From NCBI GenBank assembly GCA_964016885.1, contig OZ024744.1:75268001-75332000 (forward strand): 64,000 bases of DNA, written 5' to 3'. Source of the DNA: Eledone cirrhosa. Lineage: Eukaryota. This document shows positions 12,072 to 59,572 of this stretch, one piece after another. Positions within the stretch are counted from its first letter, which is position 1; every line of letters starts with the position of its first letter. A program made the position numbers and the translations under genes. A model generated the notes under the pieces. That model searched no databases, had not been told where the DNA came from, and saw only the letters and a list, made by a program, of their open reading frames with translations.

Positions 12072-12222
12072 GAATTGGCAGTATCAGTAGAAGGGCGGAC
12101 GCCATGCTTTGCAGCATAGAGTTACGGCCTGTTACGATCTGAATTCAAATCCTGCCGAGGTTAACTTTGCCTTTCATCCTTACGGGGTCGATAAAATAAA
12201 GCACCAGTAATGCACTTGGGTA
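12072..12222 (+). mobile_element. tRNA-derived SINE family A
   Basis: gaattggcagtatc...ttcaaatcctgccgagg...gcctttcatccttacggggtcgataaa. Confidence 0.85.
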
Positions 12223-13563: not shown

Positions 13564-13628
<65 letters not shown>

Positions 13629-13635
13629 ATAGATA
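13419..13635. repeat. (GA)n-(GACA)n-(GATA)n tract abutting the 3' end of Tx1 fragment A
   Basis: Seen directly. Confidence 0.95.

Positions 13636-14876: not shown

Positions 14877-14972
<96 letters not shown>
14877..14972. repeat. Pure (GATA)n tract between Tx1 copies A and B
   Basis: Seen directly. Confidence 0.98.
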
Positions 14973-15775
14973 TCTTTATTTGCCACTGGGGCGTACAAAA
15001 ATTGGACATTACAAGACGTGACGGCGGGGGTTTTACATAAAAATAACTTTAACATTAATAAATAACAAACTATATATAATAAAATAACAATTGAAATCCC
15101 CAGTTTCTGATGAGTACAGTTCTTAGAAAAACATAAGAGAGAAGTTTTACACCCCGTGGATAGAACAACCCTCAACACCAGGAACACGTTTTGTTGGTGT
15201 TCCTGTCTTCCCTCTGTTTATCTTCCTCAATCTACAGGTTTATATACAGAAATCCTATTCACTCGGGCCATTTTTGCCACATTCACCCACCTTTCAGCGA
15301 ATTTACTGGGATATAGGACCTCTCTCTCCACTCTCACCTTCCTTCTGAAGTGATACTTAAAGAAGGGGATAAGTTGTTGTCCCGAGAGAAAGGTGTTTGC
15401 CCTAAATAATTCCACAGGTCGGTCACCCCTGGGCACTGAACATTTGCGTGCAGAACGGTTTCGATGTCCTGCTCGCATCTTGGACAGGTCCTTTTGGCAG
15501 GATCTCTGCCAGGACGTCCGTGCCTGTAGATTTTGTCTCGAACTGGTAGAGCTCCTAGGTAGCACTGCCAGGCCAGAGACCTCTGGAAGTTATCCATAGA
15601 CCCTGGACGGAAAGTCCTCCCGAACAGACTGGTCAGTTCGTCCGCCTAGAGTTTCCCCGAGAACGTCGTCGCACTTCTCCTCCACTAATCCCTTATAGAA
15701 TGTCGAAGTGGAGTCTCCGTTGATTGCCGTTTCCGCTTGGTAGAGGGCTGTGAGCGCTTGTAGGCACTCGAGGGT
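14971..15775 (-). mobile_element. Tx1/L1-clade LINE, 5'-truncated copy B with internal deletion
   Basis: ECLQALTALYQA..., DNFQRSLAWQCY, CPRCEQDIETVLH, FFKYHFRRK. A deletion near 15405 joins DLWNY to RANTFLSG. The 5' junction abuts degenerate gataggtagatagacagata. Confidence 0.9.
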
Positions 15776-20659: not shown

Positions 20660-20724
<65 letters not shown>

Positions 20725-20729
20725 CTATC
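20659..20729. repeat. (TATC)n tract at the 5' junction of Tx1 element 1
   Basis: Seen directly. Confidence 0.97.
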
Positions 20730-20943
20730 TCTGGGATGGACACACGCGTATAACTTGCTGAGTAAGTTCTGTTTAAATTTCTATAGAAATTCTTGTCTGT
20801 AAACTTTAATTTTTGTACCATTTTGTAGAGGGACTGCCAGGTCAAACTTTGATCTGGTCAGTCTCTCAAAATATTCTACGCCTTTAGGCGAAATAGTTAA
20901 ACAAAAAAAGTTTTTTCTTGTTGAAAAGTTAACATTTTTTAAA

Positions 20944-22199
20944 ATGGCTGAAGCTTCTTCACCAAAATTCGAAGGAGGAAAGGGGAAGGTAAACTTACAT
21001 TTCCCCCTGCCACTGTCACAGTAGCAAAGGTCAAAAAGAAAGGCCAGCCAGAGGAAGGATTTTCTCCACCTGTTGACCGACAACTTGACGTTGCCATGGC
21101 AACAACCCAAAGAACCAGCGGCACCAGCAACAGCAACAACAACAACAATGCGACGGACGAAAACAACACCAATAACAATAACAACAACAACACCAATAAC
21201 TGTGATAACAACAACACCACCAACTACAACAGCAACACAAACAAAATAAATTTCTCCTTCGCCGAGACGGCAAGGAAAACCCTCGACTATCTGCCAGTAG
21301 ATATAACCAAAGCGAAGGAGCCACTGGCAGATGCCAAAAAATATATAGTGTACGGGGAAAATGGTTCATTCACGATCCATCCCCCCCCCCCCGCCCCGGA
21401 ACTAAAAGGCCAGAGACTCCTAAACATTGTCATGTTTAGGACAATCTCGAATAAAAGCAAAAAACCAGCTCAACCATCACAGAGTGAGATAGAGCTGGTT
21501 TTAAAAGACGTCATGAAGGACATCACATCACCTTCATTCAGAAGGATAGACTCTACGGGAGTCTATCCATTCTCATGAAGGACAGGGACACAGCAGTGAA
21601 ACTGTCCATCAAACCAATCACATCCACCGCATACACCTTCTACCCTACGTACATGGGTAGAAGAACACAAAAAATAAAAATCCACACCATCCTGCCGATT
21701 ATGGACATATGGTGGGTTTTGACAGGTTTCCTGGACCTGGATGATGACTCGCTGGTGTCCATGGGAAAGGCATCGGGTGACGCGTTCAGTGGAACGAGCC
21801 TCGAACTTGTAGTTCAAATGAGGCCCGAAAGGATCGCCCAGATCCCTGAACGCGTCATACTGGATGATCAAACTTTCATCACAATCACAACTGAGGGTAG
21901 GCGGCCCTCGTGTTACCTCTGCGGAACCAGAGGTCACCTGAGGGCTGTCTGTCCCCAACTTAATAAGAAAACCCCAATCCTGCCTACACCACCAACAACT
22001 GCACAACCAACACAATCATTAACCGCGTCCTCCTAAAAAACTACCCCACCCCTCCTCAAACAACCACACAACTCCAAACTCCCCAACCACACAACACACT
22101 GATGCCCCTACACTTCCACAAACCACCACCCCACCAAACAACCCATCCCCCACCCTAATGGAAATTGTGCAGCCCGATACCCGGGACGCAGAGAGGTAA
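20944..22199 (+). pseudogene. Element 1 ORF1 (gag-like, CCHC zinc knuckle), frameshifted and internally deleted
   Basis: ORFs 21096-21578 and 21575-22036 align with element 2 ORF1. It lacks roughly 650 bp that element 2 has before aaccgcgtcctcctaaaa, and ends MEIVQPDTRDAER*. Confidence 0.85.
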
Positions 22200-22223
22200 G
22201 TGCCTTTTCTCTTCACCACCAAC

Positions 22224-25200
22224 ATGGCTATGCTAAGAGTAGGCTGTTTAAATGCGCGTGGCCTGGGCTCAACTTGGAAGCAAGCAATGCTTCTAAATGA
22301 CCTTAGGTCACAACGTATAGATGTGATGGTTATTTGCGAGGCCCGGATCAGCAACGTGCGGCAGCTGGCCCCCACCTTTTGATGACTTTGAGATGCACGC
22401 ATCTCTCTGTCAGCCCGGAGGTGGGGGTGGGGTTGTCGTTCTGCTGCAAAAACATCTGGGTCTCGCAACACAGATGGTACATTTGGACCCGGAGGGTCGA
22501 CTAGTGGTTCTGGACCTTGGCAGTGGTGAAGGCGGAGCGTTTAGGTTGGTAGCCGCCTACGGCCCTTTCGGGTCAATGCGGCCGGACTTCTTCCATCGTC
22601 TGGAGACTTTTCTAGGGACGTCCCGCTCCTTGCTATTAGTGGGGGACTGGAATGGTATCCTAGATGCACGCTGGGACTACGTAGGGGCCTGTCCCGATAG
22701 AGAGGGGTGTAATAGCCTCAAAGGGTTAATCGGTCGATTTGATCTGGCCGATAGATATCGACTAGATTTTCCGCCTGCGCCAACCTGGACTTGGGCAAAT
22801 CGTAGCGGATCATCTAGGTCGTACCTAGATAGGTTCTTAGTTAGAATTAAGGATAAGGACTTTTTAAGTTGTCCAAAAATGCGCATGGTTGGCTATTCAG
22901 ACCACAAGTTAGTGACCGGCAAGTAAGGTTTACAGGAACCGGATTAGCACTTTAGTTAAGGAGCGGTTGACGGGGGCCATCGACAACAGCAGGTGGTGGG
23001 GATCTCTCAAAAGAGAGATTAGAGTAGTCTCTATAGAATTTAGTAAGGAGTTAGCCTCCAATAGAAACAGGAAGGAAAGGGAGGTGGTAGATAGAGTAGA
23101 AGAGGCAATTAGAAGCGGCGACGTGGCCAGATTGCTAGCATCGAGAACGGCCCTGGGCCTGTTCTTCGACGCGAAACACGAAGGCTGTATCGTCCGAAGC
23201 AAAATACGTGCTCTGGGAAACGAGGGGACCAAAGATGTTAGCTGGGCCCGCGTGACAGAAGCCAAAAGAGGGAGCAGATCCACTATCCGGTCTTTGCGAG
23301 ACCGGGATGGACGGGTGATCCTTGAACCTAAGCAGATGTGCAGGCTTTTCAAAGGCACTTTGCCGGATTGTTCGGAAGGGGGGGGGGCGGTTGGGGATGT
23401 GGACTTTGGTCATACCTCGACGGCCTGCCGCGTCTCTCGGACAGGGAGACGAAGTCCTGCGAGGAGCCGATTTCAGCCGCTGAGATAGAGGACGTGCTGA
23501 GCCAATGCGGCAAACGCAAATCCCCGGGTCTCGATGGTCTTCCATACGAACTATATCTAGCTATGCCGGACTTGTTCCCCGAACTCCTCGAGGCGGTCTA
23601 CTGCAACTGGCAACAGAACGGGAGAATTCCCTGTGCTGTGACCAAGGGCGTAGTCACGCTAGTGAGGAAGGACGATATAAATAATAAAGGACGATATAAA
23701 TAATAAAGGGGGACGATATAAATAATTTCAGGCCCATAACTCTGCTAAATACAGAGTTACAGATTTTGGCCAAGGTGCTAGCAAAGAGGTTGGCGCTTGT
23801 CGTGGGCAACCTGGTGGGAGATGCGCAGACATGTGCTATCCGGTCCAGGTCCATCCACGACAACCTCTACCTCATGCGATTCATCATAGAGAGGGTTGGG
23901 AACGAACCCGGCTTTGGTGGGGCCCTGATCAACTTGGATCAATCTAAGGCATTCGATAGGGTCGACCTTGGTTACCTGGATGCGGTGCTAGCGGCGGCAG
24001 GCTTCGGGCCCGTTTTCAGGGGCTGGATCAATGCCATGCACAGCAGCCGCATCTGCTCTAGGGTCAAGGTGAACGGCTACCTCTCGGAGCCTTTCGAAAT
24101 CGCGCGGTCCATCCGAAATGGGTGCCCTCAATCCTCCCTTCTGTATGTAATGACTCTAGAGCCACTGCTGCGGAAGTTGGAGTTGTTGCAGGGCATCCCG
24201 TTGGAACCGGGATTGCAGAAAGCGGTGTCAGCCTACGCCGATGACGTAACAGTAATGGTGTCGACGGCCTCGGAAATCGGGGCGATTGGCACCTTACTGG
24301 AGGAGTACGAAAGGTTTACAGGGGCCAAGCTGAACCGGGACAAATCAATCGGTCTGCAACTAGGCACGTGGAGGGGCAGATCGATGCCCTCCGATGGCGT
24401 CGTCGGGCGCTGGACGGAGGGCCCGGTGAAGTTGCTCGGGGTCTGGTTCGTACCAGACCTCCAGGTGGAGAAGAACTGGAGTGAGGTAACGAACAGGGTG
24501 TTTGCACTGACCCAGAAGTGGGCCGAGTGCAAACTGTCCCTGAAAGGTCGGGCGGAGGTGGCGAACACTTATATAGCGTCCGTCATCTACTACCGTCTGA
24601 CCGTTGTGCCTTGCCCAAGTGAAACGCTCGCCAAAATGGAGCGCGCACTCTTCCAATTCCTTTGGAAGAAGCGGGCTCCTATGGTGAGGAGATCCATCTG
24701 CTGTCAACACCCTTCGAAAGGAGGGCTGGGGATGCCGTGGCTAATGATACGTAAACACGCATTAAGGCTACGGCACCTTCAGGTATTCCTCTCCGGTCAA
24801 CCGGTGTGGGCCCCGTTTGCGAGGCGAGCCTTTCCCAGACTCGTCTCACTCACGGAGCTGCAATCCTGGGTCAAGCAAAGATCGAGAAAACTGGGCGCCT
24901 GGCACACCGAGTGTGCCCAGGCGCTCACGGCTCTCTGGCAGGCGGACCCGGCTGTCAGTGGAGAATCCACCTCGTCATTCTATAGAGGGCTGGTGGTTAG
25001 CAGGTGCGACGACGCCCTCGGAGAAGCCCTAGGCATGGAGGAAGACGAACTGGCCAACTTGTTCGGTAGGACATTCAGCCCGGGACCCATGGATAGCTTC
25101 CAGAGGTCCCTGGCCTGGCAATGCTACAGAAGGGCTCTGCCCCTTCGAGAAAGGCTCTACAGACACGGGCGCCCGGGTAGGGACCCCTCGAAAAAGATCT

Positions 25201-25625
25201 GTCCCAGATGCGTGTGCGACGAGGAAACCGTTGCACACGCATTGGTACACTGCTCGGGCATTGCCGATCTGTGGGGCTATGTCGAACAACTGCTGCCAAT
25301 GGTGGGACCGATCCGGTTGACCACCGAGTCTATTGTAACGATCAAGCCGCCTCCCCTCTTCAAAAACGAAGGAGAGGCGGTGTTTCTGTGCGTAATAGCC
25401 ATGGCGAAAGAGGTTGTATGGTGGACGCGTCTGAAAGGACTGAGGTCAGACACCTTTCTCGCTGACCAACAACTGGTCCGTTTCTTCCGATATCATTTCG
25501 GAAGAAGGATCAGGATGGAGAGAGAGGTGCTGCACCCCAGCCGTTTTTATGAAAGATGAGTGAAAGTGGCGAAAGTGGCGAGAATGGCCCGTGTGAATGG
25601 GCCTTCACTCTACATCAGACTATAT
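22224..25625 (+). pseudogene. Element 1 ORF2 (APE endonuclease-RT-CCHC), disrupted; longest open piece 23766-25559
   Basis: LDQSKAFDRV, SIRNGCP, AYADD, KLLGVWF, GGLGMP, CPRCVCDEETVAHALVHC. Confidence 0.93.
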
Positions 25626-25888
25626 GTGAGGAAGATGAACGACCAAGGGAGCACCCCTTCTCTGTGCTCCTGAGGAAAAGGGTTGCACACTTTTTTTCGG
25701 GGGGGGGGGCGACCCCTCAAGGCGCCTCCTCTCTATTGAGGATTTTGGTATACATTTTATTCTGTTATATTTTATTTTATTTTTATATTTTGTTATTGCC
25801 TCCTCCTTATTGAGGACGCCTTGTTTTGTAAACTCCCCCCATTGTACTTGTCCCACTTTTGATGCCCTGGTGGCAAATAAAAGAAACA

Positions 25889-25916
25889 TATCTATCTATC
25901 TATCTATCTATCTATA

Positions 25917-25947
<31 letters not shown>

Positions 25948-25952
25948 TTATC
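25889..25952. repeat. (TATC)n spacer between elements 1 and 2
   Basis: Seen directly. Confidence 0.97.
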
Positions 25953-26191
25953 CATTCTAGCTGTCGTCTGTTCGATAGCGTAGACGTAATTCACTTCGCG
26001 CAGAAGTTTTATTCCAATTTATTGCGGAAATTTTGTAAGTTTAATTTTAATTTTGATACTATTGTGTAGTTGACCCCCCGTTTGAACTGTCAGGCGGTGG
26101 GTCAGCTCATTTTCGTCCCTCCCATGGTTGAAAAACCTGTTTTTAAAAAATTTTGTTGCATAAAATTTCAATCGTTTGGGAGAAATGTTAA

Positions 26192-28144
26192 ATGCAGCTA
26201 ACGAAAATAGTGCTGGGGGGGGGGACAGCGGTAAGAGTTGTAAGCTCGCACGCTTTAGTCCCCCCTTCCTTCCCAACTAACGTGATAGAGAAGGAAAGGA
26301 AAAATAAAATAAAAACAGACGAATGTGCGGAGAAAAATGTCGAGGAAAACACAAATCTGGAGATTGATTCCAACAACAACAAAAATTTGAAAGAATTGCA
26401 TGACAATATTAATACCACAGACAAAGAAACAACAAACACAAAAATAACATTTGAAAACAACAACATCATAACAGAAAGCAAAACAGACGACAAAGTCAAC
26501 ACCAATAACATCTCATTTGCACAAACAACAAAAAAATCTTTAACGTACATACCTGAAAATATTTCAGATGTGGCACAAAGAATAAAAAACGCCAAACAAT
26601 TCATAACTCAAGGGGAAAATGGAGCCTTGTCGGTAAAAATGCCCCAAGAACCCACCAAAAATATTGAATGTCGGACGGTCGTTTTCCGCACCATCAACAA
26701 CATCTCAAAAAAGCCGCAACAACCAACACAAGTAGAAATTAAAGCGGTACTTAGAGAAGTATTTAATGAAGCCACTTTCATAAGAAGAGATAGGCTGTAT
26801 GGAAGCCTGGCCATTATTATGAAGAACGAATCGGCGGCGAAAAAATATGCTTTGTCGCCGATTCGTTCGACAAATTTTACCTTTTATCCATCTTATATGG
26901 GTAAAAGAACTCAGCGCATATGGCTGCATGTGATGATGCCAGATATGGACTACTGCTGGCTCATAGCTGGCTTCATCGATCCAGCGAATGACAACGTGAT
27001 TTCCATTGGGAAAACCACAGGCAATGCGTTCAGTGGAACAGGTATAGAACTTGTAGTGCAAATGAAGCCTGAACGCATTGCCCAAATACCCGACAGAATC
27101 CTATTAGAGGGCCACGGGTATATAAACATTAGCGTGGAGGGGAGAAGGCCGTCCTGTCATATCTGTGCAGGCAGAGGGCACCTGAAGGGGGATTGTCCCC
27201 AACTCAACAAGAAGAAAACCCTGCTACCAACACCAGCTCCACCACCACCACAACAGATAAACAAACAACAAAACTCAGTCCTACCCAACCCGTCCCTCAG
27301 TAAAACTACACCACCACCACAGCACAAACAGACACAACGTATTACCCAAAAACAAAACAGAATCCCACCCAACCCCTCACTCAATAAAACAACACGACCA
27401 CCACAGCCACAACACACAACACAGTCTAACATAGTGACATCCATCTCCCCCACAAAGAAAACTAACACGGAAACACTACCAGCAAACATACCTCTTCCCT
27501 CCAACACTGAAGATAACCCAACGAATTCGGAGGAAGAAACGGAGTCCTTTAGACAGATTAAAAGGAAAAAAAGAAAACATGTGCAAAACACACAAGGCCA
27601 AACAGCCCCTACCCAAATGTCAACACAATCCAACAAAACACAAAATACCCCTCCACCAACAAACAAAACCAAACCTGCCCCTCCCCTCTTCGAAACACTC
27701 ACACCATCCGAAAAAAAGACATTACACTATACTTACATCAACAGAAACAATAATAAATTAAATGAACTCATAAACAATAACCCTTCGGTACAAACCGAAG
27801 GTGTAAACTTTGTTTTTTCAGAAAACAACCCACAATTAAAATTAATAAAGATCCCAATGAACCTCTACCAAAAACTAAAAAAGGATTTTAAGGAGGACGT
27901 AGGACCACCCTCTGTCAAACCCATAAACCGCGTCCTCCTAAAAAGCTTTCCCCTTCCCCTTCCCCTCCCCAACACAACTCCAAACACCCCAACGCCACCA
28001 CACACTGACGACCCCACACCACCACAAGACATCCCTTCACCCAACACCTCCGACCCATGGAAGTTGTGCGACCCGAACCCCGGGAAGCAGAAAGGTAGGT
28101 CTCTACACTCTCCTTTGGCTTTGCCGCCCACATGGATGTGTTAA
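26192..28144 (+). CDS. Element 2 ORF1, gag-like nucleic-acid-binding protein (CCHC knuckle)
   Basis: Open 650 codons with CHICAGRGHLKGDC, a P/Q/T-rich linker and a conserved C-terminal block. By comparison with other copies the true end is probably MEVVRPEPREAER* (stop 28096-28098) in another frame. Confidence 0.85.
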   Translation: MQLTKIVLGGGTAVRVVSSHALVPPSFPTNVIEKERKNKIKTDECAEKNVEENTNLEIDSNNNKNLKELHDNINTTDKETTNTKITFENNNIITESKTDDKVNTNNISFAQTTKKSLTYIPENISDVAQRIKNAKQFITQGENGALSVKMPQEPTKNIECRTVVFRTINNISKKPQQPTQVEIKAVLREVFNEATFIRRDRLYGSLAIIMKNESAAKKYALSPIRSTNFTFYPSYMGKRTQRIWLHVMMPDMDYCWLIAGFIDPANDNVISIGKTTGNAFSGTGIELVVQMKPERIAQIPDRILLEGHGYINISVEGRRPSCHICAGRGHLKGDCPQLNKKKTLLPTPAPPPPQQINKQQNSVLPNPSLSKTTPPPQHKQTQRITQKQNRIPPNPSLNKTTRPPQPQHTTQSNIVTSISPTKKTNTETLPANIPLPSNTEDNPTNSEEETESFRQIKRKKRKHVQNTQGQTAPTQMSTQSNKTQNTPPPTNKTKPAPPLFETLTPSEKKTLHYTYINRNNNKLNELINNNPSVQTEGVNFVFSENNPQLKLIKIPMNLYQKLKKDFKEDVGPPSVKPINRVLLKSFPLPLPLPNTTPNTPTPPHTDDPTPPQDIPSPNTSDPWKLCDPNPGKQKGRSLHSPLALPPTWMC

Positions 28145-31100
28145 GAGTAGGATGTTTGAATGCACGTGGCCTGGGCTCAACTTGGAAGCAAGCAAAGCTT
28201 CTAAATGACCTCTGGTCACGTGGTATAAATGTAATGGTTATCTGTGAGACTCGGATCAGCGTCGTGCGGCAGCTGTCCCCTACCTTCGATGACTTTGAGG
28301 TGCACGCATCTCTCTGTCAACCTGGAGGTGGGGGTGGGGTTGTCGTACTGCTGGAAAAACACCTGGGTCTCGCCGTACAGGTTGTTCACTCGGACCCGGA
28401 AGGTCGTTTGTTGGTGCTAGACGGTGGCAGTAGTGGAGGTGCGGCCTTGAGACTTGTCGCCGTCTACTCCCCTTTCGGAGCTGAACGACTCGACTTCTTC
28501 CAGCGTCTAGAGACTTTTCTGGGAACGTCGCGTTCCCTGCTTCTACCGGGGGACTGGAATGACATCCTAGATGCACGTTGGGACTATTCAGGAGCATGTC
28601 CTAATGGAGGGGGTGTAACAACCTCAAGGGATTACTCGACCGTTTTAACTTGGTCGATAGATATCGACTAGATTTTCCAACTGTACCAATCTGGACTTGG
28701 ACGAACCACAGTGGTCAATCTAGATCGTATTTAGATAGATTCTTAGTTAGAAGTAAGGATAGGGACATATTAAGCTGTCCAGAAATGCTCACGGTTGGCT
28801 ATACAGATCACAAATTAGTGACCTGCGTAGTCAACCTCGAGAGAACACATAGACAGGGTCCCGGTTACTGGAAACTTAATTTGTCTTTACCGGCAAAAGA
28901 GGCTTACAGAGACCGAATTAGCAGATTAGTTAAGGAGAGGTTGCCGGGTGCAATCGTCAACAACCGATGGTGGGCATCTCTCAAAAGAGAGATTAGAACA
29001 GAATCAATAACTTATAGCAAGATGTTAGCTGCCGATAGGAATAGGAACGATAAAGAATTAACAGGTAAATTAGAAGAGGCAATCAAGAGCGAAGATGTGG
29101 CCAGAGTGCTGGCACCGAGGACAGCCTTGAGCCAGTTTTTCGATGCAAAGCACGAAGGCTGCGTCATTCGAAGTAAAATACGTGCTCTAGGTAATGAGGG
29201 GGCCAAAGCCGTTGGCTGGGCCCGCGTGACAGAAGCTAAGAGTGGAAATCGATCCACCATCCGGTCTTTGCAAGACGAGGATGGACGGGTTATCCGGGAG
29301 CCTAAGCAAATGTGCGAGGCCTTTCAAAGGCACTTTGCCCGATTGTTCGGGGGAGGCGAGGGTCCGGGCGGGGACGTGGATTTCGGTCCATACTTCGACG
29401 GCCTGCCGCGTCTCTCAAGCGAAGAGGCAGAGTCATGCGAGAGATCAATCTCGGCTGATGAGATCGGGGATGCGCTGAGCCAATGCAGCAGACGCAAATC
29501 TCCAGGTCTCGATGGTATACCTTACGAACTTTATTTAGCATTGCCGGTCTTCTTCTCTGGACTCCTCGAAGCAGTCTACTGCAATTGGCAGCAGAACGGG
29601 AGAAGTCCTTGTTCTGTAGCCAAAGGCGTAGTCTCGCTGGTGAGGAAGGACGAGAACAAGGGGATAGTATAAATAATTTTCGGCCCATAACCCTGCTAAA
29701 CACAGAGTTAAAGATTTTGGCCAAGGTGTTAGCAAAGAGGTTGACGCTTGTCGTGGGTAGCATTGTGGGAGATGCGCAGACATGTGCTATCCCATCCAGG
29801 TCCATTCACGACAACCTCCACCTCATGCGATACATCATAGAGAGGGTTGGCAACAAACCCGGCTTCGGTGAGGCCCTGATCAACTTGGATCAGTCTAAGG
29901 CGTTCGATAGGGTCGACCATGGTTACCTGGATGCGGTGCTAGCGGCGGCTGGGTTCGGTCCTGTTTTCAGAGGCTGGATCACTGCCTTCCATAGCAACCA
30001 CATCTGCTCTAGGATCAAGGTGAACGGCTACCTTTCGAAGCCGTTCGAAATCACACGATCCATTCGACAGGGGTGCCCTCTCTCCTCCCTTCTGTACGTA
30101 TTGACTCTCGAGCCTTTACTGAGGAAGTTGGAGTTGTTGCAGGGTATCCCCCTGGAACCAGGATTGAGCAAAGCGGTGTCGGCCTACGCCGATGACGTAA
30201 CAGTAATGGTATCGACCGACTCGGAGATCGAGACGATGGGTACCTTACTGGAGGAATACGAAAGGTTGTCAGGAGCGAAACTGAACCGGGAAAAATCCAT
30301 CGGGCTGCAACTCGGAACGTGGAGAGGCAGGCCGATGCCTCCCGACACTGGACGGAGGGCCTGGTGAAGTTGCTTGGGGGCTGGTTTGGACCGGACCTCC
30401 AGGTGGAAAAGAACTGGGCGAGGTTACGAGCAAGGTGTTTGCACTGACCCAGAAATGGCCCAAGTATAAGCTGTCCGTGAAAGGTAGCGCGGAAGTGGCG
30501 AACATTTACATAGCATCCATCACCTACTACCGCCTGACTGTCGTGCCTTGCCCTAAGGAAACACTCACCACCATGAAACGCGTGCTCTTTCAATTTCTTT
30601 GGAAGAAGCGGACTCCTATGGTGAGAAAATCCATCTGCTGCCAACAACCTTCGAAAGGAGGGCTGGGGATGCCGTGGTTGATGATGCGTAGGCAGGCATT
30701 ATGGCTACGGCACCTACAGGTATTCCTCACTGGTCAACCGGCGTGGGCTCCGTTCGTGAGACGAGCCTTTCCGAGACTCGTCTCGCTCACCGAGCTGCAG
30801 TCCTGGGTCAAGCAAAGATCCGGAAAACTGGGCGACTGGCACACTGAGTGTGCCCAGGCGCTCAGAGCTCTCTGGCAAGCGGACCCGGCCATCGGTGGAG
30901 AATCCACCTCGTCATTCTATAGAGGGCTGGTGGCTAGCAGGGGCGATGACACCCTTGGAGAGTCGCTGGACATGGAAGAGGACGAACTGGCCAGCCTGTT
31001 CGGTAGGACATTCGGCCCGGGACCAATGGACAACTTCCAGAAGTCACTGGCCTGGCAGTGCTACCGGGGGGCTCTACCCGTTCGAGAAAAGCTCTACAGA

Positions 31101-31552
31101 CACGGGCGCCCGGGCAGGGATCCCTCGAAAAAGATTTGCCCTAGATGCGTTCGTCACGAAGAAACCGTTGCGCACGCATTGGTGCACTGTCCGGGCGTGG
31201 CTGATCTGTGGGGCTACGCCGAACGACTGCTATCGTGGGTGGCGCCGATTCGATTGACCGCCGAGTCCGTGGTAACAATCAAGCCGCCTCCCCTCTTCAC
31301 AATGGAAGCAAAGGCGGTTTTCTGTGCGTAATAGCCATGTTGAAAGAGGTTGTTTGGTGGACACGATTGAAAGGTCTGAGGTCAGGCAACTTCCTCTCTG
31401 GCCATAGTCTGGTCTACTTCTTCCGATATCACTTCGGAAGAAGGATAAGAATGGAGAGAGAGGTGCTTGGCCACAGGCAGTTTTATGAAAGGTGGGTGAT
31501 AGTGGCGAGAATGGCTCGTGTAAATGGGCCTTCTCTGTATACCATCCTGTAG
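28132..31552 (+). pseudogene. Element 2 ORF2 (APE-RT-CCHC) with several frameshifts
   Basis: MDVLRVGCLNARG, GDWN, YTDH, GPGYWKLN, FRPITLLN, QGCPLS, YADD, CPRC...HC, ending VNGPSLYTIL*. Confidence 0.93.
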
Positions 31553-31806
31553 GTAAAGAAGTGAAGGAGAGGGGGGCACCTTCTCCATGTGCTCCCTGGG
31601 CAAAGGATTGCACACTTTTTCGGGGGTGTGTGCAACCCCCATCACGTCCCCTCGCTTTTGAGGTTGTTTCTGATTATTTTCATTTTATACCCTTTTTACT
31701 CGGTTTTATGTAAACTCCCCCTTTGTATTTGTCCCTTCTTTTTAAGCCTTTATGGTAAATAAAGAAATATATCTATCTATTTATCTATCTATCTATCTCT
31801 CTCTCT

Positions 31807-34800
31807 GCCTGACGCGTGGAACATCACCGGTAAGATTTTTTGTAAATTGATATGCGAAAAACAGAACAAATTGTTTGAAAAAACATATTATTTTGCAGAT
31901 TAACCCCCAAGCTAAATTGTCAGCAGGGTGGTAATCCAATTTTTCGCCCCTTTAGGGGCGAACATTTAATTTTAAAATTGTTTTAAAATATCAAATTTTG
32001 CCAACTATAAAACATGAATATCACGAAAGGAACGCTGGAGAACGTCGACAGAGAAAAGAGAGAGAAAGAGGCAGATTTTAACGTTATATCTGCTTCTGCT
32101 ACTATGGCCGTCGCCATAGATACGACTGTCAACAAAGAGAAAAAAATATTGCCACTTAAAGATTGTACAATTTCTACCGTCGAAGCAGAGAAAAATGAAA
32201 ACACAGGAATTAAACCCATTAACATACATACACATGATACACAGATACATCTACACATAAAGTTTCACCTCGTCAAGGAACTGAGATTTCCAACACCGAG
32301 GCTAACAACGATAACAACAACAACAGCAACACCACACAAAAAAAAATGTCTTTCCTTGAAACAGTGAACAAAAAACAAGATTTTATAAATCTTGACATCT
32401 CCAATGCAAGAGATATGCTCCAGCAAGGGAGAGAATTTGTAACTTTCGAAGAGAAGGGGGGGGGGGTTTAGAATTAACTCACCCCTTGAAATAAAAGAAG
32501 ACACAGTTCGAAGGACAGTGACCTTTAGGACTGTGTCCAATACCACGAGAAAGCCGATATTTTTTAGTCAATGAGATATAGAAGATACCTTGAAGGAAAT
32601 TCTAGCAAATATCGAATTTCTCTAACGAGAAAAACAGTACGGAAGTGTTTCCGTACAGTTTAAAAGCGAGGCACTTGCTCCAAAACATTCTGTGAAACCA
32701 ATAGTGTCATAAGTATTCACCTTTTTCCCTACATACATGGGAAAAATGACACAAAAAATAAAAATAAAAAATATACCCCCAAACATTAACATCTGGCTTT
32801 GGCTGGCTTTGTAGAGCCAGAAACTGATATGATTCTTTCGATACGAAAGTCTATTCGACAAAGGGGAGCGGGTGCTGATTTGGAGATTCTGTTGCAAACG
32901 AGGCCGGAGAGAATCTCCAAAATACCCGAAAGAGTCGTCATCGACAACAACAAAATAAACATTTCGGTAGAAGGGCGAAAAATTCCTTGCTTTCACTGTG
33001 GTAACACAGCACACCTAAAAGCCTCCTGTCCTTCACAAACACACCACAACATCATTAAAAAAACACTATTACCAACACCAAAACAATCACCACCACCACA
33101 TGTACAACAACAGACGAAACGAGCAATCACACCAAAAAACAAACAGCCACTCAACCAACAGCAACAGAAAAAACAGAGACAACACCCTGATGACCACAGC
33201 CCCACCCCATCCCACTCCATCAAACACTACCACAAACACGCACACCAAAACACCACCACCCCACAACATGCCCCTACCGCACATTCCTGAAGATGATTAT
33301 TCATCGACGGATGAAGCTGCTTCTCCTTCTTTAAATGAAGAAGAGGGAGAGCCGCGGAAATCTAAAAGACAAAAAAGAGACACCACAAAGCCCCCAAATT
33401 CCAATCACCAACACCAACACACAACCACAGACACAAACAACAACACACAACACCACAGTCAAACGTCCCCCTACCAGCAAAAGCAACACCAACACCACCC
33501 CAAACACAAGCACCCACCATAAAAAGAAAACTCCCGGACGAACAACAAACAAAAACAACACAACAAAAACACAAACAACAATACGCATACATCAAAACAA
33601 ACAACAAGAGTTTGATGGAGGTCATCTCCCAAAACCCCAAGGTGGAGACGGAGGGCAAAGCTTTCGCAAGGCAGAATCGTCTCCACACCTTAAACTTAGG
33701 GTTTCAATGGAAACCTATAATGACCTGAAAAATAAATGTTCACAGGACGTGGGCAACCTGGATGCGGTGCTAGCGGAAACCCATCAACCGCATCCTGTTA
33801 AAATGTATCCCCGCCCCACCCAACACCCCATTCAACACCCAAATGGAGATTGAACAACCGGATCTCCAGGAAACGAAAAGGTAAGTGCACCTTTCGTCCT
33901 TTTTCTCCAACTCTTCTTCACCAACATGGCTAGTTTACGAGTTGGAACTGTGAATGTGCGTGGCCTAGAGATGCCCTGGAAAGAGGGCCAACTTTTAAAC
34001 GACCTTAGGTCACACGGTATGGATGTGATAGCCATCACCGAGTCCAGGATCCACAACAGGCAGCAACTAACCCCTATCTTCGAAGACCTTGAGATCTACG
34101 CATCTCTCTGTCAGCCAGAAGGTGGAGGGGGAGTGGCTGTCTTGTTTCGGAAGAACCTGGATGTCGAAGTACAGCAAGTACACTTGGAACCGGAGGGTAG
34201 AGTGGTAGTCCTAGACATGAACAGTATTGGAGGTGGAGCCTTCAGACTGGTGGCCGTTTATGCCCCGACTGGGCAATCGCCATCACGGCCAGACTTCTTT
34301 AAGCGTCTAGAGTATTTCCTGAGAACGTCTCGCTCCTTACTTTTAGTGGGGGACTGGAATGGTATCCTAGATATACGATGGGACTATGTGGGAACATGTC
34401 CCAGTAGAGGGGTTTGCAACAGCGTCAAAACTAATCGGCCAATTCCAACAGGCCGATAGGTATCGACTGGATTTCCCGACTGCACCACAGTGGACGTGGG
34501 CAAACCGCAGCGGGATATCTAGATCGTATTTAGATAGGTTCTTCATTACAGAAAGGGACAAGGAGATGTTAAGCTGTCCACGAATGCACATTGTTGCCTA
34601 TTCAGATCACAAATTAGTCGTCTGCTTAGTCAACCGTGATATGACACATAGACAAGGACACGGATACTGGAAGCTGAACGTGTCGTTTCCGGGACGTAAA
34701 GCTTACATTGAACGGATAAGTAGACTAGTCAAGCAACAGTTAACGAGAGCCATCGTCAACAATAAATGGTGGTACTCTCTCAAGAAAGCAATTAGAATAT

Positions 34801-37560
34801 AATCGATAGGGTTTAGCAGAGAGTTAGCCTTAGAGAAAAACATAATAGAAAGAGAACTAGTAGCCAAGGTAGAGGAGGCACTTAGAAGTGGCAACGCGGC
34901 TAGAGTGTTAGCGTCGAGAACGGCACTGGACCAGTTCTTCGATCCGAAACACGAAGGCTGCGTGGTCAGAAGCAAAACACTTGCTCTAAGAAACGAAGGA
35001 GCGAAAGCTGTCAGCTGGGCCCGAGTGGCGGATGCAAAAAGTGGCAACAAGACCACGATTCGGTCTTTGAAATACCAAAACAGACGCGTGCTACTTGACC
35101 CCCAAGCAAATGTGCACGGCCTTTCAGCAGCAATTTGCGCGACTGTTTGAGCAGAACGACGGTGAGCGGAACGTGGCAATGGACTTTAGTTCATACCTCG
35201 ACGGCCTGCCACGTCTCTCGAACAGTTACGCCGAGTTATGTGAAAGACTGATCACGGACACTGAGATACGGGACGTTCTGGTCCGCTGCGGGAAACGCAA
35301 GTCACCCGGACTAGATGGTCTACCCTATGAGTTTTACATAGGCATGCCGGACTTGTTCTCTGGCGTCCTCGAAGCCGTCTACTGCAATTGGCAGCAGAAC
35401 GGGAGAATTCCCAGTTCTGCATGCAAGGGCGTAGTAACGCTGATCAGGAAAGACGAGAACAAGAGGGGCGAAATTAACAACTTCAGGCCAATAACTCTGC
35501 TCAACACAGAGTTAAAGATTTTGGCCAAGGTACTAGCGACGAGGTTGGCGCTTGGCGTCGAGAACCTGGTAGGGAAAGCGCAAACGTGTGTAATCCCGTC
35601 CAGGTCCATGCACGACAACCTCCACCTCATGCGATACATCATAGAGAGGGTGGTAGTAAACCCGGCTTCGGTGGGGCTCTGATCTGGATCAGTCTAAGGA
35701 ATTCGATAGGGTCGACCATCGATACTTAGAAGCGGTCCTCAAGGCGGCAGGTTTCGGTCCTGTTTTCAGAAGCTGGATCGAGGCGATGCACACCAGCACC
35801 TGCTCGAGCGTCAAGGTGAACGGCTACCTATCGGAGCCGTTCGCAATCACGCGTTCGATTCGACAGGGATGTCCTCTCTCCTCCATTCTGTATGTATTGA
35901 CTCTAGATCCACTACTGAGCAAATTGGAGCTGTTGCAGGGCATCCTTCTAGAACCGAGCCTGCGCAAAGTGACGTCGGCTTATGCCGACGACGTGACGGT
36001 TATGTTGTCGAGCAACTCGGAAATCGGGGTGATCGTCAACTTACTGAAAGAATACGAAACGCTGACGGGAGCAAAACTAAACCCGGACAAGTCTGTCGGT
36101 TTGTAAGTCGGTACGTGGAGAGGAAAACCGATGACATCCGACAGCGTCGTTGGACGCTGGACGGACGGACCGGTGAAATTGCTCGGGGTCTGTTTCGGTC
36201 CACACCTCCAGGTGGAGAAAAACTGGAACGAGGTCACGGCCAGAAGTGGGCAGAGTGCAAACTGTCCTTGAAAGGTCGAGCGGAGGTGACGAACACTTTC
36301 ATAGCGTCCGTCATCTACTACCCCTTGACTGTCGTGCCTTGTCCCCGTGAACACCTCGCCAAGATGGAACGCATGCTCTTCCAGTTTCTGTGGAAGAAGC
36401 AGGCTCTGCTGGTGAAGAGATCCGACTGCTGTCAACACCCTCCCAACGGAGGGCTGGGAATGCCGTGGCTGATGATGCGCAAACATGCCCTGAGGCTGCG
36501 GCATCTCCAGGTATTCCTCACCGACCCCCAACCGGTGTGGGCACCGTTTATGAGACAGGCTTTCCCACAGCTGTCTCGCTGACGGAGCTGCAGTCCTGCG
36601 TCAAGAAAAGAGCGAAAACGATGGGCGCCTGGCACATTGAATGCGCTCAGGCGCTCACAGTCCTCTGGCAAGCGGGCGCAGCAATCAGTGGAGACTCCAC
36701 TTCGACATTCTATAGAGGGATTGTACGTTACAAGGGCGACGACGGGCTCGGAGAGACTCTGGGCGTCGAAGACGATGAGCTCACCAGACTGTTTGGTAGG
36801 ACTTTGACTTTCCGCCAGGGACCTATGGACAACTTCCAGAGGTCCCTGGCCTGGCAGTGCTACCGAGGAGCTCTACCGGTTCGTGACAAGAACTACAGGC
36901 ACGGACGCCCGGGCAGGGATCCTTCCAAGAGGACGTGTCCAAGATGCACGCAGGACATTGAAACAGTCCTGCACGCAATTGTACACTGCCCGGGCGTAAC
37001 TGACCTGTGGAACTATGCAGAACAACTGCTGTCGCGTCCATAGTAAGGATCAAACCGCCAGCCTCTTTCAAAAACGAAAGAGAGGCGGTTTTTCCTCTGT
37101 ACGGTGGCCATGGTGAAAGAAGTTATATGGTGGACGAGATTGAGAGGTCTGAGGACAGATGCCTTTCTCTCCGGACAACAATTGATTCCCTTCTTTAAGT
37201 ATCACTTTAGAAGGAGAATCAGAGTGGAGAGAGAGGCACTGCACCCCAGTAAATTTACTGAAAGGTCGGTGAATGTGGCAAACATGGCCCGAGTGCTTGG
37301 GCCTTCTCTGTTTATAAGCCTGTAGGTTAAAGAAGAGAGCAAATGGAAGAAAGGGGCACTTGCACAACACGCTCCTGAAGTTGAGGGTTGTTCTGTCGAC
37401 GGGGTATTAAACAACCCATTTGTGGTGCTTCCCGCCTATTGGGGAGTTCGATTGTTATAATTGTTTGTTTTTATAGTTTTTACACGACTGTATGTAATAT
37501 CCACGGCATGTCTTTTTATTGTCTCCTTTTCTTGTGCAACCTTGTGGCAAATAAACAAAT
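31807..37560 (+). mobile_element. Tx1/L1-clade LINE, element 3 (full length, more decayed, divergent subfamily)
   Basis: ORF1 fragments with CFHCGNTAHLKASC; ORF2 fragments 33926-37325 (VGTVNVRG, GDWN, QGCPLS, YADD, CPRC); preceded by tatctatc/ctct and ending aataaacaaatatatctatctatct. Confidence 0.94.
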
Positions 37561-37572
37561 ATATCTATCTAT

Positions 37573-42056: not shown

Positions 42057-42142
42057 TGTACATATATGGGTACATTTAATGTATTGCTTATATTTTCAAA
42101 ACATCAAAATGGAGCAAAATATATGAGAAAACAATACAGTAT

Positions 42143-55039: not shown

Positions 55040-55048
55040 TTATTATTA

Positions 55049-55092: not shown

Positions 55093-58000
55093 GAGTCTGA
55101 ACGAACGTCTTTTTGCTCGCTCCCGTAAGTTTATTTATTTACCTGTCAAAACTTATTTATTGAATTTGTTGTTGTTGTGTAAGGCATACAAGCCCTTGGA
55201 CTTTGCCCTGTGAAGGGGAAAGAATAATATTTTGGCCTTTTGGCCCAAATATTTGAACTCTTTTACAATTTAACAAAATCATTGAAAAAAAAAACATGGC
55301 TGAGCCACACTCCCCAGCGATATGTCTTTTGTCGTGCTACAACGACGTAAAAGTTGAGAGGAGCGCTACGGCGAAATTAACAGAAATTGATACAACAAAC
55401 ACCAACACAAACAATGTTAACAAAGACAGCAATGATAATAACACTGAGCACTCTAATTTTCAAAAAAATAACAGTAACAGCGACAACGAAAATACAGATA
55501 ACACCAACAGCAACAATAGCAACTGCACCGAGAACAACGGCGGCACCAAACACAACAATGATAACAGCGACAGTGATAACAACAGCACCAATAAGAACAA
55601 CGACAACAACAACAACAACACCAACGACAAAAAGAAGAACACTTTCGCTGCGGCAGCAGCAAAAAAGAAGCCATGCTTCAACATGGACCTCTCAAACAAA
55701 GATGAAAAGTTGGCCCAGGCCTGGAAGCTCATCGATCGAACAAGAGCAAACCTGGGACAACTTAACTGTCCCGGTAGAAGCTATTGAGGCAGTGGAGAGC
55801 AGAACGGTGCATTATAGATGCATCTCAGCACAAACCAAAAGGGCAGCTTTATTTCCACCAGCAGATGTCGAAGTAGCGCTGAGGTGCATCAAAGATGACA
55901 CCGAATACTTAGAGGGGCAGACAGTACGGCACCATTTCGATGCTATTCAAGTTGAAGCCCTCGCTATGAAACACGCTATGACTCCTTGCAAAACCAGCAA
56001 GGTCTTAATGTACCCCTCCCACATGGGAAAAAGAACGGGCCGTCTCCGCATTCCCAGAATCCCACCAGGACTTGACATGTGGTGGCTTCTGGGATGTGTG
56101 ATAGTGGAGGGGACGGATAGATGTGACAAGAACGGCCAGAGAGGATTGGTCCGGGGTTGACCTGGAGATCCTTCTCCAGATCAGGCCCGAGAATGTGAAG
56201 ACAATCCCGGACCACATCCGCCATCAGAATGGGACGGTCATTCACATTATGACCGAAGGTAAATGCCGCATTGTTTTGTTTGTGGGGAAAAAACCCATTT
56301 GCGACCTTCTGCCCTTAACTGCTGAAAGAGGCAAGAGGTCGAAAGGCTCCACTGTTGCCGACGCCGGGGCGAGGACCACAACCAACACCAGCACCGGCAA
56401 AACCACCAACAACAACACCAGTAGACAGACCACCACCAACATTGACCACCCAGGGGGAAAACGAGGAAAGCTATCAAATTCCCCCTCCCCCCCAAAATAG
56501 ACACTCCAATAAAACCATAAACATACATACAGATACACTTACAGACACAGACCCCTCATATACCAGTAGTGAAAATGAGGGAAATCCAAAATCTCCCAAA
56601 ATATAAAAAAGGAAACACAAAAAGTCAAAAAATGGCAACAAAGCACAAAAGCACCCACAATAAAAAACGCAGACACCACCCACGCAAACATCTCTCCAAT
56701 AACACCAACATCAACACCACCATCACCATCACCAGAATCCCCCAAACGCAAACAACCGAAACAGACGCAAGAACAAATATACACACAAACATCTGAAACC
56801 ACAGACACCGCACTCACAACAAACACAGATACAACCGAAACAACACCACCAAAACCATCACCACCACAGCCACGCAAACAAATAAAATCACATCAACAAA
56901 ACATACAAAACTTCGTGCTCGTCAGGAGGGCCAACAAGGAACTGATGGCCCTCGTAGCACGAAGTGAAAATATACAAAAAGAGGGGGACATTTTAGAATA
57001 AAGCACATTTCGCGGGCCGGAAGATTTGGTTCTGGTGCGAATGTCGCTCGACATATTCAAAGAAATACGAGACAGCTTTCCTCGGGACGTGGGAACCCCG
57101 AACGTAAAACCCACTTCAAGACTTTTAAAGGGGTTCCCAAAAGAAACCCCACTAACTATGGAGGTCGAACCACCCGACCTTTACAAGAGCCCGGAAGGTA
57201 AGTAAACCTTTCCTCTCTCTCTTTTAACCTGCCAACATGGCCATATGAAGATGAGGAAGTTTAAATGTTCGAGGCCTGAGATCGTCCTGGAAGCCGGGTC
57301 ACCTGCTCAACGACCTCAGGTCTATAGAAATGGATGTCATTGCCGTCAGCGAGACCAGAATTTCCGACACAAGCGCACTAGCCCCCATTTTCGACGACTC
57401 TCAGATCTTTGCATCTGTTAGCCGGTCGGGAATGGGAGGCGGGGTGGCAGTGCTGATTAGGAAAGGCCTGGATCTCGTGGATAAGGTCGATCCCCCGGCA
57501 CCGGAACGGGAAGTTGGTGGTCCTGGACGTGAACAATAACGAAGGTGGGGCATTACAACTAACGTGCTAGCGGCGAGAATGGCATTAGACCATTTATTCA
57601 ATGCGAAACACGAAGGTTGCATTGTCAGAGTTAGGGCGCTGGCACTGAGAAACGAGGGAACCAAAGCTGTTCGATAGGCCCGCATGGCGGAGGCGCAGCG
57701 TGGTAATAAAACCACGATTCGGACTTTGACGGACCGAGATGGACACGAGCTGAGCGATTCCAAGAGGATGTGTGAGGCCTTTCGCCAACATTTTGTTCGG
57801 TTGTTCGGGGGAAGTGGCGGGTCAGAGACGGTGTCGGACTTCAGTCCCTACTTCGATGGCTTGCCGCAACTCTCGACGGTCGACGCTGGGCGTTGCGAAA
57901 GGCCGATTACTTCAGCCGAGATTCAGCATGCCCTTGTCGGCTGTATGAAGCGCAAGTCATCCGATTTGGGTGGTCTGCCCCACGAGCTTTACGTAAATAA

Positions 58001-59572
58001 GCCACACTTGTTTTCCAATCTCCTCGAAGCGCTCTACTGCAACAGGCAGCAGAACGGGAGCATTCCCAGTTCTATGAGCCGGGGCGTAGTGACGCTGATA
58101 AGGAAAGACGAGAACAAGAGGGATACATTAGACAACTTCAAGCCCATAACTCTGCTCAACACAGAGTTTAACATTTTGGTCAGGGTGTTAGGAAAGAGGT
58201 TGGCGTTTGTCGTCGGGGATTTGGTTGGGGAGGCGCAAACTTGCGCAATCCCAACCAGGTCCATACACGACAACCTCCACCTAATGCGATACATCATAGA
58301 GAGGGTAGGGTGTAAACCTGGCTTCGGTGGGGCTCTGATCATTTTAGATCAATCGAAAGCATTCGATAGGGTTGACCATCGATACCTGGATGCGGTGCTC
58401 GAGGCGGCTGGCTTCCGCCCCGTCTTCAGAAGCTGGATCGCTGCAATGCACAGCGGCACCTGCTCGATGGTCAAAATTAATGGCCACCTCTCGGAACCGT
58501 TTCAGGTCTCCCGATCAGTCCGTCAAGGGTGCCTTCTCTCCTCCCTTCTGTACGTATTGACTCTCGAGCCTTTACTGCGGAAGCTGGAGCTGTTGCAGGG
58601 CATCTTGCTCGAACCGGGACGCGGAAAGCCTCTGTCGGCTTATGCGGACGACATCACCGTGATGGTGTCGGACACCTCAGAAATCGAGGTGGTCGGCAAC
58701 TTATTGGAGGAATATGAAAGGTTGACGGGAGCAAAACTTAACCCGGAAAAGTCAGTGGGCTTGCAACTCAGCACCTGGAGAGGCAAGTTCGTGCCGTCCA
58801 ACAGCGTCGTTAGGTGCTGGTCGGACGGACCGGTAAAGTTGCTAGGGGTTTGGTTCGGGCCAGACCTCCAGGTAGATAAGAATTGGGACGAGGTGACGGG
58901 CAGGGTAGTCAGTCTCACCCAGAAATGGGCTGGGAGGAAGCTATCACTGAAAGGTCGGGCGGAGGTGGCGAACGCGTACATCGCGTCTGTCATCTACTAC
59001 CGTCTGACTGTCGTCCCTTGCCCCCGTTCGCGCCTCGCCATCTTGGAGCGGCTCCTCTTCAAATTCTTGTGGAGGGGTCAGGTTCCGCTGGTGAGGAGGT
59101 CCATCTGCTGCCAGCACCCTCTACGTGGAGGGTTGGGCATGCCGTGGCTAATGATGCGCAGGCACGCGCTGAGGCTGCGGCATCTCCTGATATTCTGCCT
59201 AAACGGTGAACAGGTGTGGTCGCCGTTTGTCAGACGGGCCTTTCCGAAGCTCGTTTCTTTGACTGAGTTGCAGTCCTGGGTCAAGAAGAGATCGAGACTG
59301 GGTGACTGGCATCTGGAATGTTGCCAGGCACTCACTGACCTCTACCAGGCGGGCAATGTGGTCAGTGGAACTTCCACTCTGGAGTCCTATAGAGGATTAG
59401 TGGTGGGCAAGTGCGACGACGCACTCGGAGAGGCTCTGGGAGTCAACGAAGTCGAACTAACCAGTCTGTACCGGAGGACTTTCGAGCCGGATGATGGATA
59501 AGTTCCATAAATCCCTAGCTTGGCAGTGCTACCGGGCGGCACTGCCGGTTCGAGATAAACTCTACAGGCACG
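55093..59572 (+). mobile_element. Tx1/L1-clade LINE, element 4 (5'-intact, internal deletion, 3'-truncated)
   Basis: ORF1 fragments 55296-57205 (MAEP..., YPSHMGKRT, LQIRPE); ORF2 starts at 57237; deletion near 57550; RT ORF 57684-59501; homology stops after KLYRH. Confidence 0.93.
57684..59501 (+). pseudogene. Element 4 reverse transcriptase region (605 open codons)
   Basis: FKPITLLN, LDQSKAFDRV, RQGC, AYADD, KLLGVWFG, GGLGMP. Confidence 0.93.

Follow-up and report, generated by a model that had tools for sequence, protein, structure and literature searches.

A candidate retained mini-intron in the 5' UTR of octopod Tx1-like LINEs

Elements copied from RNA are expected to lose their introns, and a retained intron is therefore unexpected. 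Keeping introns through retrotransposition has been called highly unusual, characteristic of Penelope-like elements and of unknown significance (PMC8557442). The stretch of Eledone cirrhosa DNA analysed here (64 kb, called the window) carries LINE copies with an intron-like segment in the 5' UTR, and the question it raises is whether that segment is spliced and how it has stayed in the DNA.

Copies of one LINE group

The window contains at least seven pieces of one LINE group, and four copies, E1 to E4, have kept their 5' ends (Table 1). E1, E2 and E3 form a head-to-tail array with (TATC)n between the copies. All four are near-full-length and all are frameshifted; the ORF1 region of E1 is about 600 nt shorter than those of E2–E4. 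Identity among the copies is 78–87% for RT DNA and 26–55% for ORF1 protein and, to judge from their sequences, the four are separate subfamilies.

Table 1. Positions of the LINE copies and of their features in the window
Copy	Feature	Position	Strand	Details
E1	LINE copy	20733..25890	+	two-ORF Tx1-like LINE, decayed, between (TATC)n tracts
E1	DPE-like motif	20742..20749	+	ACG at 20744, donor 18 nt further on; RGACGTGY matched at 6/8 positions
E1	Intron-like segment	20762..20828	+	GTAAGT...TTTTGTAG, 67 nt
E1	Predicted hairpins	20828..20890	+	hairpin 1 20828-20867 (acceptor G is closing pair); hairpin 2 20879-20890
E1	ORF1 ATG	20944..20946	+
E1	Second donor	22194..22226	+	AG/GTAAGT (22196) holding ORF1 stop; pyrimidine spacer; ORF2 ATG 22224
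E2	LINE copy	25953..31770	+	Tx1-like LINE, longest 5' end of the four
E2	Start and DPE-like motif		+	CATTC at 25953; AGACGT at 25982
E2	Intron-like segment	26003..26069	+	donor site A/GAAGTTT without GT; acceptor TGTGTAG
E2	Predicted hairpins	26068..26131	+	hairpin 1 26068-26107 (both acceptor bases paired); hairpin 2
E2	ORF1 ATG	26185	+
E2	Second donor	28093..28134	+	AG/GTAGGT (28095) at ORF1 stop; pyrimidine spacer; ORF2 ATG 28132
E3	LINE copy	31807..37562	+	Tx1-like LINE, third of tandem array
E3	DPE-like motif	31810	+	TGACGCGT
E3	Intron-like segment	31830..31898	+	GTAAGA...TTTTGCAG, 69 nt, A-rich interior
E3	Predicted hairpins	31898..31962	+	hairpin 1 31898-31936; hairpin 2 31943-31962
E3	ORF1 ATG	32014	+
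E3	Second donor	33879..33928	+	AG/GTAAGT (33881) at ORF1 stop; pyrimidine spacer; ORF2 ATG 33926
E4	LINE copy	55093..59572	+	most divergent of the copies; (ATT)n at 5' flank; lacks its 3' end
E4	DPE-like motif	55103	+	GAACGTCT
E4	Intron-like segment	55125..55183	+	GTAAGT...TGTGTAAG, 59 nt
E4	ORF1 ATG	55296	+
E4	Second donor	57196..57239	+	AG/GTAAGT (57198); ORF2 ATG 57237
	ORF2-stop region	31550-31556, 37323-37330, about 25623-25630	+
	ORF2-stop region	13875-13882	-

ORF2 encodes an APE endonuclease (PF03372) and an RT (PF00078), both above cut-off, with a C-terminal zinc motif (PF13966) that scores 24.6 bits, under its 27.5 cut-off, and this is the ORF2 arrangement of the Tx1 clade. The Tx1 preference for repeats as target is seen as well: all five intact 3' ends adjoin (TATC)n, and the 5' flank of E4 is (ATT)n. 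ORF2 of E4 matches Tetraodon pol at 257 bits, Xenopus Tx1 at 229 and human L1 at 129, and the closest named RT relative is a protein of Argonauta hians (62%). In an RT tree of 22 rows the window copies group with the Argonauta protein at a support of 100/99, and the join to the Xenopus Tx1 group is unsupported (58/54); as the tree has no L1 outgroup, we call the elements Tx1-like. The microsatellite LINEs of the Tx1 clade (Kibi, Koshi and crocodilian Tx1) likewise have two ORFs, APE, RT and zf-RVT, and insert into microsatellites, but the flanks in the window are (TATC)n or (ATT)n, and the cited part of their description mentions no Tx1 intron (PMC4494074). For O. vulgaris, 13 recently active L1-Tx1 families and 421 near-full-length insertions are reported (PMC13282606).

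A profile search with ORF1 returned 337 protein matches at E ≤ 0.001, and an ORF1 word search none from 647 candidates. The window has no 5' end beyond those of E1–E4, and none of the further ends sought in genome contigs was confirmed, either among 25 pattern matches with an ORF1 pair or among 160 matches by endonuclease alignment. A covariance model of E1–E3 recovered at E < 0.4 only its three inputs; E4 was missed, and no new end came up.

The five intact 3' ends lack poly(A) (25876–25890, 31758–31770 and 37550–37562 on the + strand; near 13625 and 14973 on the − strand). They consist of AATAAA (in one of them in a CTAATAAA variant context), about 8 nt and then (TATC)n, with a conserved TGTAAA some 50–60 nt upstream; it may be that transcription stops within the microsatellite and that the transcript then pairs with the target. 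E4, which breaks off in ORF2 at 59572, is preceded by (ATT)n (55040–55093) in place of the (TATC)n found elsewhere, and its target repeat is possibly different from that of the other copies.

The intron-like segment of the 5' UTR

One plan is common to all four 5' UTRs: an ACG motif, 18–20 nt, a donor, an AT-rich segment of 59–69 nt, an AG, hairpins and the ORF1 ATG. From E1 to E4 the distance from ACG to donor is 18, 19, 18 and 20 nt, and that from the acceptor AG to the ATG, which serves as an independent anchor, is 115, 115, 115 and 112 nt. The coordinates originally predicted for the segments of E1, E3 and E4 proved exact when checked on the sequence; for E2 the end at 26069 stood, and the start moved from a GC donor at 26000 to 26003, the position given by alignment. 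The donors had been placed about 25–50 nt from the 5' end; measured from the ends inferred for E1 to E4, the distances are 30, 43–50, 23 and 32 nt.

GTAAG, a donor of the U2 type, is intact at the same position in three of the four copies and E2 lacks the GT. Its loss through decay is plausible, if unproven, since all copies are frameshifted. An alternative donor in E2, GTAATT at 25986, is weak, and GTAAGT at 26035 was rejected as it would give a 35-nt intron. The predicted 3' AG is present in all four copies, as YAG in three and as AAG in E4. The predicted T-rich stretch is found in each as an AG-free run before the AG, as in a U2-type acceptor (45–59% T in the last 22 nt), and does not extend to the interior of E3, which is A-rich (42% A, 35% T). 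A branch-point-like TTTAAT was noticed by eye in E1 and E2 only, the expected range being 18–40 nt before the AG. The literature searched gave no figure for the minimum intron length in octopods with which the 59–69 nt could be compared. The segment lies entirely inside the 5' UTR, and removal of an upstream ATG was rejected as its purpose, such an ATG being present in just one of the four copies (E3, 31852).

Between these ends the sequence is free to vary, as expected inside a U2-type intron. Alignment of the interiors is at shuffle level in five of the six pairs, with z values of 0.8, 0.3 and 0.3 for the pairs among E1, E3 and E4, and only E1–E2 is above it (4.3). The arrangement has nevertheless been kept despite the divergence of ORF1 protein and RT DNA. 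Shuffling by dinucleotides never (0 of 5000) put GTAAG inside one 15-nt window in at least three of the four UTRs, and block shuffling did so in 1 of 5000; the combined pattern of donor and acceptor occurs in 0 of 5000 under both nulls. An AG-free, T-rich acceptor at the same distance from the ATG in all four copies is reached by 0 of 4000 shuffles. An AG alone at a shared position turns up in 320 and 716 of 5000 shuffles and is not significant, and any shared trimer at a common offset is seen in 20 of 5000. The shuffles treat the copies as independent, which is defensible for E1, E3 and E4, because their interiors align no better than shuffles, and not for E1–E2. The AT-rich linker before the ATG is also constant in length (50, 50, 50 and 47 nt), and fixed spacing is therefore not specific to the intron. 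The claim of similar spacing despite poor similarity is borne out by these comparisons, and conserved ends around a diverging interior are what an intron would be expected to leave.

The thresholds of these shuffles were picked post hoc, with the data already viewed, and the sequences number four, which leaves some room for chance combined with descent: promoter and structured blocks may be joined by an AT-rich linker that runs from GTAAG to AG by accident. Across the window, 9 of the 85 GTAAG sites (both strands, UTR sites counted) have an acceptor-like AG 50–90 nt downstream. The GTAAG has, however, been kept at one position in three copies in which the neighbouring sequence is saturated, and a second near-consensus donor is conserved independently (see below). 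We regard chance as very unlikely, and the donor–acceptor arrangement and its conservation as real and non-random features of these sequences.

The segment is flanked by possible promoter elements on one side and by predicted stem-loops on the other. E2 starts with CATTC, which we take to be Inr-like. It lies about 30 nt before the ACG motif, near the spacing of Inr and DPE. The other three copies start merely 5–12 nt before the motif, compared with about 31 nt in E2, and their 5' ends are either slightly truncated or the starts lie in the flank. At the 5' junctions of E1 and E3 (20724–20733 and 31798–31807) a short (TC)n run follows (TATC)n; the corresponding region of E2 is 25945–25960. The ACG motif agrees in all four copies with six of the eight positions of RGACGTGY, the downstream element (DPE) of Drosophila LINEs and Penelope (PMC2377424), and two other sites in E2 tie with it. 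The original prediction suggested that the segment itself might overlap an internal promoter, spliced copies then being dead on arrival. Splicing would leave the DPE-like motif in place, since the motif precedes the donor, and a promoter inside the segment was rejected on its unconserved interior; promoter loss in spliced copies is not supported by these sequences. The donor itself could double as a promoter element, by analogy with the donor of human L1.

A stem-loop begins at the acceptor and is followed by a smaller one, with folding z scores of −5.9, −3.3, −3.6 and −2.5 in E1 to E4; the hairpins of E4 also come after the segment, but are unlike those of E1–E3. In the consensus structure of E1–E3, 8 of 18 pairs have changed on both sides, and the covariation score was reached by 0 of 500 shuffles in a test of three sequences on a structure derived from the same three. 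The acceptor G is predicted to pair with the end of the hairpin with a probability of 0.94–1.0 in E1–E3 and 0.45 in E4. This is suggestive of an acceptor G hidden by the stem, and weak evidence when taken alone, because 54–69% of all G's in these UTRs are predicted to be paired.

A second donor at the ORF1 stop

Like the acceptor hairpin, a second donor was passed over in the original prediction. AGGTA[AG]GT has four matches on the + strand of the window (22194, 28093, 33879 and 57196), all at ORF1 ends, and three more on the − strand. In E1–E3 the ORF1 stop lies inside this donor, the ORF1 end of E2 being in this frame if a 1-nt frameshift is assumed. E4 keeps the donor in another codon phase, with the stop 5 nt in, and this points to a constraint on the nucleotides rather than the protein. 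GTA[AG]G is co-located in all four ORF1 ends, and block shuffles place it so in at least three of the four in 3 of 5000 cases. Of nine ORF1 homologues that reach the C-terminal motif, two end in GK or GKS like E4, as judged by eye in 38 of 150 matches (those of at least 250 aa). The donor is followed by a spacer of 76–79% pyrimidine and then by the conserved ORF2 start CC[AC]ACATGG. Predicted pairing to a U1-like consensus is −10.3 to −12.2 kcal/mol for the second donors and −5.6, −8.2 and −5.7 kcal/mol for the intact 5' donors of E1, E3 and E4, which makes the donor at the ORF1 stop the stronger of the two on this prediction.

An acceptor for this donor was sought among 139 conserved AGs and none stands out. 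The AG of the ORF2 stop ranks third for pyrimidines, and randomisation of synonymous codons reproduces the site at p 0.04, 0.25 and 0.08. TTTTCAG in RT was rejected after the same procedure (p 0.27, 0.10, 0.10 and 0.005). A second intron of 42–53 nt that fuses ORF1 to ORF2 was also rejected: its first AG is in frame in E1–E3 and not in E4 and is mostly AAG, and such a fusion is disfavoured because ORF2 has a conserved start of its own. As far as these codon comparisons tell, codon content goes most of the way to explaining each of the candidate acceptors (first ORF2 AG, ORF2 stop and TTTTCAG in RT). At the ORF2 stop the sequence is CTGTAG in four of five copies, E1 having lost the AG. A further stop (TAA or TGA) stands 1–2 nt past this position in five of five copies, with an AG/GT junction in three; the junction could be acceptor-like or donor-like and is unexplained.

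One explanation of both donors is a two-RNA strategy like that of Ty1/copia. Removal of the 5' intron together with a second intron from the ORF1 stop would give an ORF1-only RNA and an excess of ORF1p; unspliced RNA alone would encode ORF2p and be reverse transcribed, so that the introns stay in the DNA automatically. The persistence of the ORF1-end donor in all four copies across the change of codon phase, its co-location beyond that of the block shuffles, the GK or GKS ends among homologues and the doubled stops after CTGTAG all fit such a strategy. So does the precedent of EVD, a Ty1/copia element with a subgenomic gag RNA, in which spliced RNA yields the structural protein and unspliced RNA the enzyme and the genome; the likeness depends on the second donor removing ORF2, and EVD, unlike E1–E4, is an LTR element (PMC8616336). 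The strategy lacks a standout acceptor, however, the candidate site at the ORF2 stop is near what codons alone produce, and E1 has no AG there. Nothing indicates that the two splicing events are coupled, and RNA spliced at the 5' intron alone would give rise to intronless copies; an ORF1-only copy is also absent from the window. We consider the two-RNA strategy unlikely, both for the ORF1-only RNA and for the unspliced RNA as sole source of ORF2p.

U1 is known to protect transcripts from early polyadenylation, and each A-rich ORF1 region contains three to five sense AATAAA (21245–21673, 26303–27844, 32490–33731 and 56508–56997). The GTAAG sites could then be binding sites, for U1 snRNP or for a transcription factor, at which no productive splicing follows; one would strengthen the internal promoter and both would guard ORF1 against early polyadenylation, with the AG kept just as the base of the hairpin. 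This would account for a second donor without a clear acceptor, for an acceptor G at the base of a stem and for the missing GT of E2, and the 5' UTR donor of human L1, most of whose RNAs are unspliced, has been kept as part of a RUNX3 site (PMC5860796). It leaves aside that the T-rich, AG-free run and T[TG]TNYAG before the stem are also conserved (0 of 4000 shuffles) and lie outside the hairpin in E1 and E3, and that an acceptor at minimal-intron distance brings a lone donor no gain. We rate such binding without splicing, the chief alternative to a spliced segment, as doubtful, in its promoter-strengthening and in its protective form alike.

Non-standard splicing would use the same signals differently: the 5' exon, donor, U-rich stretch and hairpin might together serve as a spliced-leader RNA, or an ORF1 circle might arise by back-splicing from the ORF1-stop donor to the 5' acceptor. 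The 5' acceptor and the second donor do bracket ORF1 (1367–2025 nt), and Rfam SL2 matches E1 at 20746–20846 (E 1.8; 18.8 bits, the gathering score being 41). That match is no better than chance and has no counterpart in E2, no Rfam family reaches its gathering score in the 64 kb, HDV-like and hammerhead ribozymes and SL RNA included, and a laxer scan at the ends of E1 and E2 gave best E values of 0.79–2.5. A cis acceptor also follows directly after the donor, and we give non-standard splicing hardly any weight.

Retention of the segment in DNA

Taking an inefficiently spliced intron and the two-RNA strategy together, we think it likely that the segment is really spliced, and the feature is probably spliceosomal. 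Whether it is a real U2-type spliceosomal 5' UTR mini-intron of an octopod Tx1-like LINE lineage, inefficiently spliced and with unspliced RNA as the template, we hold to be evenly balanced, and this is our preferred reading. Under it, Pol II would start at an internal promoter of the Inr/DPE type about 50 nt upstream of the donor, and recruitment of the spliceosome at the 5' intron would raise RNA output or translation, as in Penelope, placing the signals under selection. A donor with a weak exon side and a partly hidden acceptor would leave many transcripts unspliced. Unspliced RNA would still be translatable, because the segment is non-coding and mostly without ATG, and it would supply ORF2p and be copied in cis, keeping the intron in DNA; intronless progeny should arise yet found lineages poorly. 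The donor at the ORF1 stop would suggest that the spliceosome is used in more than one place. The preferred reading has to contend with a missing invariant GT in E2, the most complete 5' end, with the purine-rich interior of E3 and the AAG acceptor of E4, and with TTTAAT being evident in E1 and E2 only.

Provided that the segment is spliced, unspliced RNA must have been the template of all four DNA copies that contain it, and this part of the original prediction follows on that condition. The companion idea, that spliced RNA is the translated form, finds no support: the segment is wholly 5' UTR, and ORF2p of the L1 type copies the RNA that encoded it, a cis preference (PMC5860796, PMC3747384) that makes the RNA producing ORF2p the one copied. 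Copies lacking exactly the segment, as SpIREs would, number 0 among the 4 full-length ends in the window, which bounds the spliced share among full-length copies only to below about 53% (one-sided 95%).

The closest parallel is Penelope of Drosophila virilis. Penelope, and likewise Chlamys-3_cRei, combines an internal promoter carrying a DPE-like GACG motif with a donor some 45–50 nt beyond the start, and genomic copies have retained the short intron that follows in the 5' UTR (PMC2377424, PMC8557442); the signals of E1–E4 match this layout. The Penelope intron is 75 nt long, compared with 59–69 nt here, and lies 46 nt after the start; its deletion abolishes reporter protein and not RNA (PMC2377424). 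Splicing is proven for Penelope and predicted for E1–E4. A Penelope-like element has just one ORF, which encodes a GIY-YIG endonuclease, and carries pseudo-LTRs, whereas E1–E4 have ORF1 and an APE-RT ORF2, with a predicted hairpin where the acceptor lies and another donor where ORF1 stops. A terminal repeat shared by the 5' and 3' UTRs was sought in both orientations, and alignment was at shuffle level in three of three elements; rescue of the intron by a pseudo-LTR was rejected, since without such a repeat a second copy of the Penelope-like kind cannot restore it. The segment is laid out like the Penelope intron, and the element, on its domains and ends, is not Penelope-like.

Human L1 resembles E1–E4 in belonging to the L1 group of LINEs and in having a conserved donor close to its 5' end; its RNA is mostly unspliced and its spliced copies (SpIREs) are dead ends (PMC5860796). 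Splicing in L1 takes out 500–900 nt, promoter elements included, draws on several acceptors and has been described as harmful (PMC5860796), whereas in E1–E4 one acceptor stands at minimal distance, the part that would be removed is unconserved and the DPE-like motif would stay. TART of Drosophila is likewise a non-LTR element with spliced transcripts, but its introns are in antisense RNA and the signals of E1–E4 are on the sense strand (PMC1636488). In the literature searched, with most subscription journals and Repbase reports outside its scope, neither feature, the conserved intron of the 5' UTR or the donor at the ORF1 stop, is described for Tx1 elements. Splice sites in zebrafish LINEs were reportedly described by Tamura et al. 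in 2007.

A selected intron in a two-ORF Tx1-like LINE without terminal repeat would mean that retention of an intron is within reach of an ordinary target-primed element, and would part explanations by a mechanism special to Penelope from those by selection on expression. The donor at the ORF1 stop would further suggest a way for a LINE to produce ORF1p in large excess over ORF2p. A bolder and rather unlikely reading of the same signals is that the LINE is organised as a spliced gene, with a promoter exon, the 5' UTR mini-intron, an ORF1 exon closed by the stop-codon donor and ORF2 in a second intron. The corresponding division of labour, with spliced RNA giving ORF1p alone and unspliced RNA giving ORF2p and being the sole RNA copied, seems to us equally tentative. 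If true, cis preference itself would preserve the introns, and such a LINE would be the counterpart of the genomic/subgenomic strategy of copia and a second route to heritable retroelement introns besides Penelope-like elements.

The window also holds less complete relatives. Two 5'-truncated copies lie in tandem in (GATA)n on the − strand (13569–14875 and 14932–15767); the latter has an internal deletion of roughly 170 nt, which was rejected as a splice product for want of clean GT–AG ends by eye. A further, more decayed copy (62614–64000) starts in the endonuclease region and runs off the window. A dispersed repeat of 100–230 nt, 78–95% identical between copies (5947–6170, 6812–6980, 12072–12224, 42141–42321, 60807–61032 and 62519–62613), presumably resembles the common octopus SINE.
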